Assembly: GCF_050920415.1 (NCBI RefSeq)
Contig: NZ_CP169309.1
From: Escherichia coli
Lineage (GTDB): Bacteria > Pseudomonadota > Gammaproteobacteria > Enterobacterales > Enterobacteriaceae
DNA length: 64,000 nucleotides
Reading direction: 5' to 3' (one strand)
A program made the position numbers and the translations under genes. Positions 27,813 through 54,323 of the stretch are shown piece by piece. Position 1 is the first letter of the stretch. Each line of letters starts with the position of its first letter. Under the pieces are notes generated by a model. It was not told where the DNA came from, did not search any database, and was given only the letters and a program-made list of their open reading frames with translations.

Positions 27813-28823
27813 ATGAAGGCTGCAGTTGTTACGAAGGATCATCATGTTGACGTTACGGATAAAACACTGCGCTCACTGAAACATGGCGAAGCCCTGCTGA
27901 AAATGGAGTGTTGTGGCGTATGTCATACCGATCTTCATGTTAAGAATGGCGATTTTGGTGATAAAACCGGCGTGATTCTGGGCCATGAAGGCATCGGTGT
28001 GGTGGCAGAAGTTGGCCCCGGCGTTACCTCATTAAAACCAGGCGATCGCGCCAGCGTGGCGTGGTTTTACGAAGGATGCGGTCATTGCGAATACTGTAAC
28101 AGCGGTAACGAAACGCTCTGCCGTTCAGTAAAAAATGCCGGATACAGCGTTGATGGCGGCATGGCGGAAGAGTGCATCGTGGTCGCCGATTACGCGGTTA
28201 AAGTGCCGGATGGCCTGGACTCGGCGGCGGCCAGCAGCATCACCTGTGCGGGCGTCACCACCTACAAAGCAGTAAAACTATCAAAAATTCGTCCAGGACA
28301 GTGGATTGCTATCTACGGTCTTGGCGGTCTGGGCAACCTCGCCCTGCAATACGCGAAAAATGTCTTTAATGCAAAAGTGATCGCCATTGATGTCAATGAT
28401 GAGCAGTTGAAACTGGCAACCGAAATGGGTGCAGATTTAGCGATTAACTCACGCACCGAAGACGCCGCCAAAATTGTGCAGGAAAAAACCGGTGGCGCTC
28501 ACGCTGCGGTGGTGACAGCGGTAGCTAAAGCTGCGTTTAACTCAGCGGTCGATGCCGTTCGTGCAGGCGGGCGTGTTGTAGCAGTCGGTCTGCCGCCGGA
28601 GTCTATGAGCCTGGATATCCCACGCCTTGTGCTGGATGGCATTGAAGTGGTCGGTTCGCTGGTCGGCACGCGCCAGGATCTAACCGAAGCCTTCCAGTTT
28701 GCCGCCGAAGGCAAAGTGGTGCCGAAAGTCGCCCTGCGTCCGTTAGCGGACATCAACACCATCTTTACTGAGATGGAAGAAGGCAAAATCCGTGGCCGTA
28801 TGGTGATTGATTTCCGTCGCTAA
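27813..28823 (+). CDS. adhP: Zinc-dependent alcohol dehydrogenase, propanol-preferring
   Basis: 336-aa product from ATG 27813 preceded by AAGGAGG; GHEGIG and CGVCHTDLH motifs. Confidence 0.95.
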
Positions 28824-28832
28824 GAGGCCCTT

Positions 28833-28867
28833 GCTGCGACTGCCATGTTTGAGTCGCAGCCTGTTTT
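28833..28867 (+). terminator. Rho-independent terminator after adhP
   Basis: GCTGCGACT-loop-AGTCGCAGC followed by CTGTTTT. Confidence 0.65.
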
Positions 28868-29008
28868 GCGAGACGCTTTCCGCAATTTCACTCTTCTTCT
28901 TTTCCTCCCCCATCTTTCCCCTCACAATTCGCGAAAACGTAGCGAAATTTGTTGCGCTGCACGGAACAATAGTGATAGTGTTCCTTTCGAGGGAACAAGG
29001 ATGAAGAG

Positions 29009-29287
29009 ATGATAATGAATTTCAGACACAAGGGATTGCGTGACTTGTTTCTTCTCGGCAAAACCTCCGGCGTTATACCGACGCAAATCAAACGATTACG
29101 CCACCGACTCGCTGTGATTGATGCAGCAAGCTGTCTTGCTGATATCGATATGCCCGGTTACCGACTACACCCGTTAAGCGGCGATCGTGATGGAATTTGG
29201 GCGATATCTGTCTCGGGCAACTGGCGAATCACATTTGAATTCGTCAATGGCGATGCATACATACTGGATTACGAGGACTATCACTGA
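29009..29287 (+). CDS. HigB-like toxin (RelE/ParE superfamily mRNA interferase)
   Basis: 92-aa ORF; strong resemblance to plasmid Rts1 HigB-type killer proteins (FKHKGL..., HPL.GDR.G.W.I.V..NWRITF.F.NGDAY.L.YEDYH); stop overlaps start of downstream antitoxin gene. Confidence 0.8.
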
Positions 29288-29571
29288 TGAAAATGGCCAA
29301 TCATCCCCGCCCGGGGGACATTATTCAGGAATCACTGGACGAGCTGAACGTCAGCCTGCGCGAGTTTGCCAGAGCAATGGAAATTGCGCCCTCAACGGCA
29401 AGCCGATTGCTGACCGGAAAAGCCGCGTTGACGCCAGAAATGGCGATTAAACTTTCCGTGGTGATCGGCAGTTCGCCGCAAATGTGGCTGAATCTACAAA
29501 ACGCCTGGAGTCTGGCAGAGGCAGAAAAAACGGTAGATGTGTCGCGATTACGCCGTCTGGTTACGCAATAA
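29287..29571 (+). CDS. yddM: HigA-family antitoxin, XRE-type HTH DNA-binding protein
   Basis: 94-aa ORF with HTH ([23 protein letters not shown]); ATGA overlap with the toxin gene. Confidence 0.9.
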
Positions 29572-29619
29572 AAAAATGGCACCTTATAAAGCGCCATTTG
29601 AAACTGATGGCAAACGCAA

Positions 29620-29730
29620 AATTGCCTGATGCGCTACGCTTATCTGACCTACACGTTCACTGCAATCTATTGGATTTGAACGGTTTGTAGGCCGGATAAG
29701 GCGTTCACGCCGCATCCGGCATGAACAAAG
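29620..29730. repeat. REP/BIME palindromic units
   Basis: GCCTGATGCGCTACGCTTATCAGACCTACA and GTAGGCCGGATAAGGCGTTCACGCCGCATCCGGCA, classic E. coli REP sequences; flanked by hairpins AATGGCGC...GCGCCATT that can act as bidirectional terminators for yddM and fdnI. Confidence 0.8.
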
Positions 29731-29798
29731 TGTACGTTGTCTACAATAAAAAATGGCGCTTTTTACAGCGCCATTTTCAGCTTAAAGTTCAAAAGAGA

Positions 29799-30452
29799 TT
29801 ATATCCCTTCTTCACTCTCTTTTTTCGCTTCTGCCTTTTCGATTTCACGATACCAGCGTGGATGGTGTTTCTTCGCCCAACGACGGCTCACCTTCCCTTC
29901 GATCATCCCTTTAATCGACCCTTTCACCCAGAATGCCATATACATATGAATCAGGATGGCGTGGATCAGGATGATACCCGCAGCCGCGTGAATCAACAGG
30001 CTATAACGGACAACCTGCATCGGGAAGTACTGCGCAAAGTACGGACGCCAGATAATCACCCCGGTTACCAGCAGCACGAAAATCATGCTCATGATCGACC
30101 AGAACATCATCTTTTGCCCGGCGTTGTACTTACCAACATCCGCCACTTTGTGTTCATTGCCTTTTAATACTTCGACAATGTTCAACAGCCACGGAATATC
30201 TTTCTTATCCGGGATGTTGTGATGCACAAAACGCACAAACATAAACATCAGCGCGACGAAAATCGCAATGCCGAAGAACGGGTGCAAAATGCGTCCCATC
30301 TGCGGCGTACCGAAGGTTTGTGTCAGCCATTGCAGCGTCGGGAAGAAGAACGAAATCCCGGACAGCGCTACCAGGAAGAAGCAAATCACCACGGTCCAGT
30401 GACAGGCGCGATCAATAAACTTGGTGCGCACAATCATTTTCGACTTACTCAT
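29799..30452 (-). CDS. fdnI: Formate dehydrogenase-N, cytochrome b556 gamma subunit
   Basis: 217-aa product from internal ATG ([12 protein letters not shown]...); overlaps the fdnH 3' end. Confidence 0.95.
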
Positions 30453-51170: not shown

Positions 51171-52307
51171 TTACGAAAGCCCGCTCCCCGCAAGGACTGA
51201 CGCCAGATACTTTCTGTCCATGGCTGCTTTTCGCATCTTACGTCTTAACCCTGCCTTGAATACCTTATCATTCGTCAAAATATTAATAGCGATGTGCCGT
51301 ATCCCTGAAAATAATTCTGCTGCATTTCCTCTTCTTATTTTGCAGTCGTCTTCATTCATTACCACGTCCAGACGCCAGTGCAGCTTATTCTCCACGTGCC
51401 AGTGATTTCGGATCGCTGTGGCGAACTTCTCTGCGGTTAAATCAGCAGAACTGATATAATATCTGACCGTCATTTCTGGCTCTTTCTTTTGTTCTGCTAT
51501 TATTGACCGAAAGGAGACTGCCACGCATAATTTCTTCAGACCTTTCCATTCAAACGTGAAATCAATAAGTTCATCAGGGACATCGCAAACAATATGAAGA
51601 CGGATTTCTTCTCTGCCGTGACTCTTTTCACTAATTGCGTAACTGTCATGCTCTGGATTATTTAATTCTTTCAGCGGAAATTTTTCCTCGAAGGCTTTAT
51701 TTAGCCGCCCCTGGTTTCCTTTTACAGCGAATAAATAATCACCTCCCTGTTTTTGTATCTTCTCTGCAATATCTTTCTGGCAACCCATCGCATCAGTTGT
51801 GATGATTTTTCCTTTAATATCCAGCATGTTAAGAAGTTCTGGGATAGCTGTAATCTCATTGGATTTCTCATCCGTCTTGATCTGTCCGATGACCAGACTG
51901 TGCATTGTTGAGAACGCACTAATGACATGAATCGCTCCCCTGCGGCGACTCTTGTCATAAGAGTGCCGGAGCGTTTTTCCATCAATTGCAATGACGTCTT
52001 TATCATCTGAAGAATGACATTCACGCATCCGGTTAATAAAGCATTCGTGAAATTTTGCAGGACTGATACATGATACAACTCTGGCAATAGTATCGTGAAC
52101 AGGAATACCATTTTCAAAATCACCATATTGCTTCAAAAAATCGAGATGAGTTTCCCCGAAATCCTCTATATCTTCCCAGCCTTCTGCACCCGAAATAACG
52201 GCGCAAATAGTCAACAGTAGAATATCCGATAATTTATGCTCCACTTTCCAGGCTTGTCTGTAATCGGGGATAATAGAAATATGTTCCATCAATTTTTTAA
52301 GTTCCAT
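51171..52307 (-). CDS. ydcC: ISAs1-family transposase (Rhs H-repeat-associated protein)
   Basis: 378-aa [40 protein letters not shown]..., the characteristic H-rpt ORF of E. coli Rhs elements. Confidence 0.9.
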
Positions 52308-52439
52308 TTTGTTCTCCTTAATTATGTAAGGAGTATTTGATCATGTATAAGCAATAAAAAACAGCTTCAGGTAATGAGGAATATCTCAATTTTTAAACAT
52401 AAAATGCGAATTGTTTAGTACAAAAAAGCAGCGTTAAGT

Positions 52440-54323
52440 GAGTAGGCCACCGGAACCTCCCCGACAGCCTCTCGCAGAACCGTACGTGAAACTCTCGCTT
52501 CATACGGCTCCCGTCAGGCAAACGCGCTTCCTGGTCCTGCTTTCCAGTGGGCAAACAACTCCGGCTTCTCTTTTGACAGTCTTTCCATTAGCTGACACGC
52601 CTTCGTCTTTCTATACCACAGGGTTTTATATTTCTTTCTCGCCCACGCAATCAGCGTCAGATTAATATATCTGCATACTTTCTTCATCGCTGATTTGTGG
52701 TATCTCGCGTAATAATTCAGCCACCCCGATATTATCAGATTCAGCCACTTCGCAATATCTTCGAGACTCATCTCCACCCTGCGTCTGATCCACAGTTTCC
52801 TGAGTTTTCCAATCATGCCTTTCTGCGCACGGTTACTCGCCGCCGGGCTGAAACTCGTAAAGAGGTTTCCCCGCCGGTGGTTACGTGCTCTTCGCGCTCT
52901 GAACGTATACCCCAGAAAATCAAACTGCACTGTTTCATGGTTCGCCTGTCGTTCGCTGTCTTTGCAGTAAACTATTTTCGTTTTCTCCGGATGTAATTCC
53001 AGTCCACATTCCTGAAAACGTTTTGCCAGCTTATTCAGTAATTCCTCTGCCTGTTGTTTACTGCCACAATGAATTAATCCATCATCTGCATAACGGCACC
53101 AGGGAATTTCCGGATAATGTAACGTCAGCCATTTATCAAACACATAGTGCAGAAATAAATTCGCCAGTACCGGGCTGATGACTCCACCCTGTGGCGTACC
53201 TTTATTTCTTTCCTTCAGTGTTCCATCCGGCATCTGCACCGGCGCTGTCAGCCAGCGGCGAATAGACAGTCTTACCCATTTATCCGCACAATGTTTATCT
53301 ACTGCCCTGAGTAATAAATCGTGGGGGATATTATCGAATAACCCTTTAATATCAAACTCAAGACACCAGTCGTATTGCCAGCAACGTTTTCTGGTGACTG
53401 CTATTGCATCCAGCGCTGATTTTCCATGCCGGTATCCGTATGAATCATTCAGGAAATAACGCTCCACTAATGGTTCAAACGTTACCAGCACCGTCATCTG
53501 CGCTATTCTATCGCTTACTGTCGGTATTCCTAAAAGTCTTTTGCTGCCATCCTTCTTCGGAATTTCCACCGCACGCACTGGCGGCGGCATCCAGCTTCCC
53601 GACGATAACCTGTTCCAGATTTTGTACAGATTTCCTTTCAGATCCCGCTCAAAATCTTTCAGCGTCTGGTTATCCACTCCGGCAGCTCCGGCATTCGCCT
53701 TTATCCGCCGGTACGCTTCCACCACATGCAATTTACTGACCTGAAACGGTTTTGTCTGTTCACACACAGTCTCCTCCTGCCTACAGTTGGGCTGTGATGC
53801 AGACTGCCCGACGCTGTCCCTTCGCTCCACGTTCATTACAAACGCTTCCTCACTACTACGAACAGCTCTGCCCCGGTTTCGCACATCGATACTCTCATAC
53901 TCATAATTTCGGTTATTTGTAATTCTCTCTTGACATTGCGACGACCGGTTCCCGTAGTTCCTGCAAAGAGCCCGATACAGCGTCATGCCTGCTATACACC
54001 GGACATCATTCACGCAGCATTCGGAATTCACCCGTAAATTAATCCCGGCGGTATCACGAAACCTCCGGTTTTGATGTCACTTAGGACTAACGACGTTTCA
54101 ACACAGGTTCGGGTTTACTCATCTCACTGTATCTCACATAGGATCAGATCTCGTCTGATCGTTCCCCCTGCGCTCACTACCATGGCTCTTTACCACAGCA
54201 GCCGGGGTTGTTTGGGACCGACTTCCGACAGCAGATCCCGGTGGGCCTGCCACCATCTCTTCACAAGCTTATGCTTATTACATGCAAAACGTCCCGTTTT
54301 GCATCTTTGTGCCTACGGCACAC
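52440..54323 (-). mobile_element. Group II intron (boundaries approximate)
   Basis: On the minus strand: 5' GUGUG-type start near 54323, internal RT/maturase ORF, and a canonical domain V hairpin GAGCCGTATGAAGCGAGAGTTTCACGTACGGTTC (plus coordinates 52477..52510) followed by a domain VI-like helix. Confidence 0.8.
52514..54031 (-). CDS. Group II intron-encoded reverse transcriptase/maturase
   Basis: 505 aa with RT motifs including YADD (RYADDGLIHC) and a C-terminal maturase (domain X) region; stop codon abuts domain V. Confidence 0.9.
   Translation of the reverse strand: MNSECCVNDVRCIAGMTLYRALCRNYGNRSSQCQERITNNRNYEYESIDVRNRGRAVRSSEEAFVMNVERRDSVGQSASQPNCRQEETVCEQTKPFQVSKLHVVEAYRRIKANAGAAGVDNQTLKDFERDLKGNLYKIWNRLSSGSWMPPPVRAVEIPKKDGSKRLLGIPTVSDRIAQMTVLVTFEPLVERYFLNDSYGYRHGKSALDAIAVTRKRCWQYDWCLEFDIKGLFDNIPHDLLLRAVDKHCADKWVRLSIRRWLTAPVQMPDGTLKERNKGTPQGGVISPVLANLFLHYVFDKWLTLHYPEIPWCRYADDGLIHCGSKQQAEELLNKLAKRFQECGLELHPEKTKIVYCKDSERQANHETVQFDFLGYTFRARRARNHRRGNLFTSFSPAASNRAQKGMIGKLRKLWIRRRVEMSLEDIAKWLNLIISGWLNYYARYHKSAMKKVCRYINLTLIAWARKKYKTLWYRKTKACQLMERLSKEKPELFAHWKAGPGSAFA

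Follow-up and report, generated by a model that had tools for sequence, protein, structure and literature searches.

An intact higB-yddM pair between adhP and fdnI

The E. coli DNA analysed here, a stretch of 64,000 nucleotides referred to as the window, carries a real and intact pair of chromosomal genes for a HigB toxin and a HigA antitoxin (YddM). The pair is already known, since it is annotated in RefSeq and has been described in the literature. The original prediction had placed open reading frames (ORFs) of 92 and 94 amino acids between adhP and fdnI, and both were found there. The gene adhP ends at 28823, and fdnI occupies 29799-30452 on the minus strand, convergent with higB-yddM; in the mechanical list of ORFs, fdnI extends to 30494. 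The features of the locus are listed below in window coordinates.

28833..28860, plus strand: probable adhP terminator hairpin just after the adhP stop codon, a perfect 9-bp inverted repeat, GCTGCGACT N10 AGTCGCAGC
28950..28968, plus strand: operator-like palindrome O1, TGTTGC-N7-GGAACA, a putative YddM/HigA dimer site
28974..28979, plus strand: candidate -10 hexamer GATAGT between O1 and O2, proposed by analogy
28979..28997, plus strand: operator-like palindrome O2, TGTTCC-N7-GGAACA, with perfect half-sites, ending 11 nt before the higB start codon
28998..29001, plus strand: Shine-Dalgarno-like AGGA read from the sequence, 7 nt 5' of the higB ATG
29009..29287, plus strand: higB-like toxin gene, 92 aa, intact, identified as an ORF with Pfam and PDB matches and annotated in RefSeq
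29273..29277, plus strand: Shine-Dalgarno GAGGA for yddM read from the sequence, within the 3' end of higB and 9 nt 5' of the yddM ATG
29287..29571, plus strand: yddM (higA), the antitoxin gene, coding for 94 aa with an XRE-type helix-turn-helix at the N-terminus, identified by profile and PDB matches
29574..29599, strand not assigned: terminator-like hairpin directly 3' of the yddM stop codon, with a minus-strand score in the scan

The two genes at 29009-29287 and 29287-29571 have the arrangement of a hig-type operon, in which the toxin gene comes first and is followed on the same strand by an adjacent or overlapping antitoxin gene. The reading of the locus as a toxin-first module of the HigB/HigA type was thus borne out by gene order and strand, and the family profiles and PDB matches agreed with it. 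The overlap itself had been described as a four-base ATGA, and the sequence gives instead a single shared base in C-A-C-TGATG, with the stop codon TGA at 29285-29287 and the start codon ATG at 29287-29289. This TGATG overlap, together with the GAGGA motif inside higB, suggests that the two genes may be translationally coupled. On the adhP side, the inverted repeat at 28833..28860 forms the left boundary of the hig locus and is kept in both toxin-plus and toxin-less alleles.

The toxin belongs to the HigB family and keeps its active site

The toxin matched the Pfam family PF05015 (HigB-like_toxin) over its full length with an E value of 1.5e-17, residues 4-92 aligning to positions 2-91 of the 91 in the model, so that the profile alignment proposed as a check supported the assignment. 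It also aligned to the HigB of plasmid Rts1 from Proteus vulgaris (PDB 4MCT and others) without gaps over 92 residues, at an E value of 1.2e-31. The original description of the toxin as closely resembling Rts1 HigB therefore stands as regards homology and needs qualifying as regards degree, the identity being 51 of the 92 residues (55%). With 17.8 bits against a cut-off of 27.9, the protein fell below the threshold of the NCBIfam model TIGR02385 for the RelE/StbE subfamily. By these profile scores, the toxin is a HigB-type member of the RelE/ParE superfamily and not of the RelE/StbE type.

Six residues of the Rts1 HigB active site, His54, Asn71, Arg73, Asp90, Tyr91, and His92, were all found at the same positions of the toxin in the gap-free alignment. 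In Rts1 HigB, alanine substitution of each of His54, Asp90, Tyr91, and His92 abolishes both toxicity and mRNA cleavage, Arg73 stabilises the transition state in the published model, and Asn71 adjoins His92 (Schureck et al., PMC5027501). Two basic residues beside the mRNA path of Rts1 HigB are replaced in the toxin (Arg48 by Met and Lys57 by Ser), at positions where single alanine substitutions showed that neither residue is essential (PMC5027501). Disruption of catalytic residues, which the original prediction had named as evidence that would count against it, was thus not observed, and its claim of an intact toxin ORF was upheld by a full-length product of 92 aa with every experimentally critical residue in place. 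Between the window and a contig carrying an E. albertii-named protein, the toxin gene had a dN of 0.014 and a dS of 0.14, which is consistent with purifying selection. The window carries an intact form of the toxin, presumably active as judged from its conserved residues. The literature examined yielded no toxicity test for the E. coli HigB of this locus.

The antitoxin is HigA

YddM scored 93.7 bits against the NCBIfam equivalog model TIGR02607 (antidote_HigA; cut-off 47.7), and its residues 14-65 matched HTH_3 at an E value of 5e-9. Rts1 HigA matched it over residues 7-87 (E 1e-18). The protein is 100% identical to PDB entries 2ICP and 2ICT, titled "antitoxin higA", which are the YddM/HigA of E. 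coli CFT073 (PMC3968373, PMC6987408).

The gene varies almost exclusively at synonymous sites. Against the E. albertii-named contig, yddM had a dN of 0.005 and a dS of 0.22. The window differed from K-12 at 10 synonymous and 0 nonsynonymous positions, and from CFT073 at 17 synonymous and 0 nonsynonymous positions, so that the protein was identical in the window, CFT073, a strain with a frameshifted toxin gene, and K-12. This pattern indicates strong purifying selection on the orphan antitoxin, and, on the evidence of these substitution counts, yddM is under such selection with or without the toxin. Together with the conservation of the operators described below, the selection on yddM argues that the orphan YddM still does something in the cell. 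YddM was included among candidate K-12 transcription factors in a study combining ChIP-exo and knock-outs (PMC6237786).

Predicted operators and promoter upstream of higB

The palindromes O1 and O2, each 19 bp long, lie just 5' of higB with a start-to-start distance of 29 bp, in a region that is highly conserved across the toxin-bearing alleles. In the toxin-less alleles of K-12 and O157, the half-sites of both palindromes were kept, while the 7-nt spacers and the surrounding sequence were heavily diverged, a pattern expected of protein-binding sites. We therefore propose O1 and O2 as predicted YddM/HigA operators for autoregulation.

We read the same spacing of 29 bp from the sequence of an Rts1-type hig operon on an IncT plasmid, where the two palindromes are GTATTGCA/GTATTACA-N5-TGTAATA; TATAGT lies in the interval, and about 30 nt separate the beginning of the second palindrome from the start codon. 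Dimers of Rts1 HigA bind the operators O1 and O2 of that system and repress Phig roughly 200-fold (PMC12266136). In the window, GATAGT occupies the relative position of TATAGT in the Rts1-type promoter. A consensus scan returned no sigma-70 promoter at threshold upstream of higB, and consequently GATAGT is put forward as a candidate -10 element purely by analogy with the Rts1-type promoter.

Comparison with known systems

The closest characterised relative is Rts1 HigB-HigA (P. vulgaris; PDB 4MCT/4MCX, 4PX8, 4YPB), which shares with the window pair the toxin-first order, a 92-aa toxin with the same catalytic residues, a HigA with an N-terminal helix-turn-helix, and two palindromic sites 29 bp apart just 5' of higB. 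Its stop and start codons likewise overlap by one base, as TAATG where the window has TGATG. The two systems differ in that toxin identity is only 55% and the antitoxin match (E 1e-18) is at family level, the antitoxin having 94 aa in the window and 104 aa in Rts1. The operator sequences are also different, TGTTCC-N7-GGAACA in the window versus GTATTACA-N5-TGTAATAC in the Rts1 type. Whereas the Rts1 hig genes are plasmid-borne, the window locus lies on the chromosome and keeps its synteny among the Escherichia contigs that were compared, and NCBI gives its toxin the generic RelE/ParE family name, in contrast to the name HigB used for the Rts1-type genes. The pair GraT-GraA of Pseudomonas putida (PDB 6F8S), also a HigB-like toxin with an XRE antitoxin, is much more distant from the window pair than the Rts1 pair, with E values of 3e-7 for the toxin and 2e-11 for the antitoxin.

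Two earlier descriptions concern the same locus as the window pair. CFT073 HigA (YddM, PDB 2ICP/2ICT) and the toxin encoded upstream of it correspond to the window genes with an identical antitoxin and a toxin that differs at 2 of 92 residues. The system TA20 (ParE-2/HigA-2) of the AIEC strain NRG857c (PMC7232551) matches in its gene lengths of 279 and 285 bp and in its inverted gene order. The HigBA of K-12, located in the fadH-rlmG intergenic region, is of the same functional class and name and lies at a different locus; its HigA carries the helix-turn-helix at the C-terminus (PMC6987408). K-12 is complete for this fadH-rlmG system and has only the antitoxin at the adhP-fdnI locus (PMC7232551).

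A CFT073 delta-higBA mutant had no defect in a mouse model of urinary tract infection (Norton and Mulvey, PMC3464220). Its assignment to the present locus was considered and rejected, because the primer arms in Table S3 of that study had no match in the window even at 3 mismatches; the knock-out therefore concerns another locus, and the mutant result is not applicable here.

Status of the toxin gene in K-12 and O157:H7 and its annotation

The original prediction had been unsure whether the toxin is annotated or intact in K-12, and had proposed examining the K-12 sequence 5' of yddM for the same ORF. The ORF was not there. The spacer between adhP and yddM is 463 bp long in the window versus 146 bp in K-12 (DH5alpha) and O157:H7, and the shorter spacer contains no toxin ORF in either, so that nothing is present there to annotate. 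What survives within the 146 bp is the pair of operator-like palindromes plus the final codon and stop of the toxin gene; the latter abut the yddM ATG and read CAC-TGA in K-12 and CAC-TAA in O157. In two alignments, the K-12 remnant aligned to either end of the toxin gene, depending on the alignment; because ATGAA occurs at both ends of the gene and the flanks are diverged, the deletion junction in K-12 is not placeable to the base. The antitoxin-only state of K-12 and HS and the complete pair in AIEC NRG857c and CFT073 have been reported under the designation TA20 (PMC7232551).

Under-annotation of the toxin half, also suggested at the outset, was not supported. RefSeq/PGAP names the toxin "type II toxin-antitoxin system RelE/ParE family toxin" (WP_000605673.1) beside yddM, as read in a RefSeq strain with a locus that showed no difference from the window in a comparison of 977 bases, and the toxin is annotated likewise in CFT073 and in every other toxin-bearing genome listed.

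A mosaic of both haplotypes was observed in the 146-bp adhP-yddM spacer of the O157:H7 strain TR01 (L005, locus 802-946). Pieces of the toxin-bearing haplotype, among them 47 bp from the 3' end of higB with 100% identity, are joined there to sequence of the toxin-less haplotype, and either recombination or a faulty assembly could account for the mosaic.

Distribution of the toxin gene and its loss alleles

Among 5,426 complete E. coli genomes, a collection biased towards clinical lineages, the toxin gene was found in 1,330, always in one copy and in 1,329 cases on the chromosome. A 1-bp deletion in codon 33 of higB (CACCGAC to CACCAC) was common to 545 genomes, while 610 had the intact sequence at this site. 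The frameshift ends the reading frame three codons on, PGAP calls these copies frameshifted pseudogenes, and in the frameshift alleles examined (L004, L017) yddM was intact and identical at the protein level. One of the carriers is a strain of serotype O25:H4, a serotype typical of ST131. In addition, one bat isolate had a 9-bp in-frame deletion in the toxin gene. An intact toxin is accordingly possible in at most about 14% of the genomes, roughly one in seven, and about 75% have none. The allele in the window is a minority one, matched at 99% DNA identity or more in only 42 genomes. Plasmid-borne relatives of the toxin were all less than 60% identical, barring three records in which chromosomal sequence has evidently been filed under plasmids.

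The alleles point to three candidate routes of toxin loss, namely clean deletion of the ORF (K-12/O157 type), the 1-bp frameshift (545 genomes), and the 9-bp in-frame deletion (one strain). They may form a series of toxin decay accompanied by domestication of the antitoxin, in which an ancestral pair would have lost its toxin by at least three routes and left an orphan YddM with a function of its own; we regard the case for this series as evenly balanced. The repeated loss implies that the toxin is dispensable in E. coli, and, given this loss, the toxin could be weakly expressed or attenuated.

Origin of the pair in Escherichia

The 90%-identity cluster of the toxin contains proteins whose sources are named as E. 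marmotae, E. albertii, and E. fergusonii, and the contigs carrying them share the gene order maeA-adhP-higB-yddM-fdnI-fdnH-fdnG, with an additional NUDIX gene after yddM in the E. albertii-named contigs. The adhP genes of the E. albertii- and E. marmotae-named contigs were 89-91% identical to that of the window, so these contigs are genuinely diverged. Since they have the same synteny, higB-yddM is probably ancestral at the adhP-fdnI site in the genus Escherichia, as judged from these contigs, and the toxin was probably lost afterwards, repeatedly and in most E. coli.

Contigs carrying the protein named as E. fergusonii (L010, L011) were rejected as an independent species for this comparison because over 5 kb they shared 95-99% identity with the window. 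They are far closer to the window than the E. albertii- and E. marmotae-named contigs are, which points to a doubtful species label or an introgressed region.

Recent horizontal spread of the toxin segment was also considered, as the synonymous divergence of the toxin gene between species was lower than that of adhP. In a comparison by segment with the E. albertii- and E. marmotae-named contigs, yddM, fdnI, and fdnH were about 95% identical, and maeA and adhP 87-91%. The toxin was 96-98% identical and thus exceeds its right flank by a small margin only, and the claim of horizontal transfer was therefore dropped.

Proposed mode of action and alternative explanations

We consider it very probable that these chromosomal genes form a type II toxin-antitoxin operon of the HigB/HigA kind with the toxin gene first, homologous to Rts1 HigBA. 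By homology to Rts1 HigBA, a single promoter would drive higB and yddM. The 92-aa HigB, predicted to have a RelE fold, would enter the ribosomal A site and cleave mRNA through His54, Arg73, Asp90, Tyr91, and His92, and a dimer of the 94-aa YddM/HigA would bind and neutralise it, as in the Rts1 complex (PDB 4MCT). The N-terminal helix-turn-helix of YddM would bind the two operators over the promoter, TGTTsC-N7-GGAACA and 29 bp apart, and repress the operon. On this model, deletion removed the toxin ORF from about three quarters of the sequenced E. coli, among them K-12 and O157:H7, with the operators and an orphan repressor gene staying behind, and another large group of E. coli carries the toxin gene with a 1-bp frameshift.

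It is unlikely that the pair serves phage defence or anti-addiction, through abortive infection by HigB and/or the action of YddM against plasmid HigB, rather than stress-responsive growth control. Such a role would explain the retention of the orphan antitoxin, and is in keeping with yddM genes of toxin-less strains that differ from toxin-bearing alleles by 0 nonsynonymous and 10-11 synonymous changes, with the operators kept in toxin-less alleles, and with weak antitoxin matches to the helix-turn-helix proteins of PADLOC candidate defence systems (E 7e-5). However, the toxin had no PADLOC match, and the locus lies between housekeeping genes and not in a defence island. Cross-neutralisation is moreover uncertain, because the plasmid HigB toxins are less than 60% identical and the match between Rts1 HigA and YddM is at family level only (E 1e-18).

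Somewhat less probable again is a module that is silent or attenuated despite its intact ORF, with a tightly repressed, decaying toxin heading for loss. Toxin absence from 75% of complete genomes, the frameshift in 545 genomes, the 9-bp in-frame deletion in one strain, and the lack of a consensus promoter in the scan all fit this idea, as do the 4 nonsynonymous changes and 1 synonymous change that separate the window toxin from that of an E. marmotae-named contig. The catalytic residues are nevertheless all intact, the dN/dS against the E. albertii-named contig is about 0.1, conservation of the toxin is 96-98% among the contigs that were compared, and all toxin-bearing alleles have a highly conserved upstream region. 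Finally, the notion that the 92-aa ORF is open merely by chance within an intergenic spacer, which its small size alone might suggest, is refuted by full-length profile and PDB matches at E values of 1e-17 to 1e-31 and contradicted by its conservation as an ORF in the E. albertii- and E. marmotae-named contigs.

Other features of the window

Between yddM and fdnI, REP/BIME-type repeats occupy window positions 29600-29735, and this insert is flanked by near-identical hairpins, the one at 29574-29599 and a near-copy at about 29750-29780 beside the 3' end of fdnI. The segment 29687-29721 alone had dozens of matches per E. coli genome. The yddM-fdnI spacer is just 50 bp long in K-12 and in the strains with the frameshift allele, and it holds the NUDIX gene in the E. 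albertii-named contigs.

The minus-strand region 51171-54254 contains a group II intron, with the Rfam matches RF00029 at 52437-52512 and RF01999 at 54137-54254. It has a 505-aa ORF (52514-54031), and at the matching position an ltrA reverse transcriptase/maturase is annotated in the RefSeq strain that matches the hig locus. The neighbours of the intron are an ISEc1 transposase (51171-52307) and the remnant of an IS256, and together they form a small cluster of mobile elements after yddH. Within fdnG, a selenocysteine insertion element (Rfam SECIS_3, 84 bits) was detected at 33749-33807 on the minus strand, as expected for formate dehydrogenase-N, which accounts for the splitting of fdnG at a UGA codon in the mechanical ORF list.

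Significance

Because the toxin is annotated in RefSeq, the structure of the antitoxin has been solved, and the presence/absence difference in K-12 has been published, the gene pair as such has little importance beyond bookkeeping. The YddM of K-12 is an orphan antitoxin, and about one of every seven sequenced E. coli has its cognate toxin intact. If the proposed decay series is true, the function of the orphan YddM would be that of a transcription factor or of protection from incoming HigB toxins. The orphan antitoxin, together with the frameshifted copies in a large group of clinical genomes, constitutes a natural system for studying why orphan antitoxins are retained.
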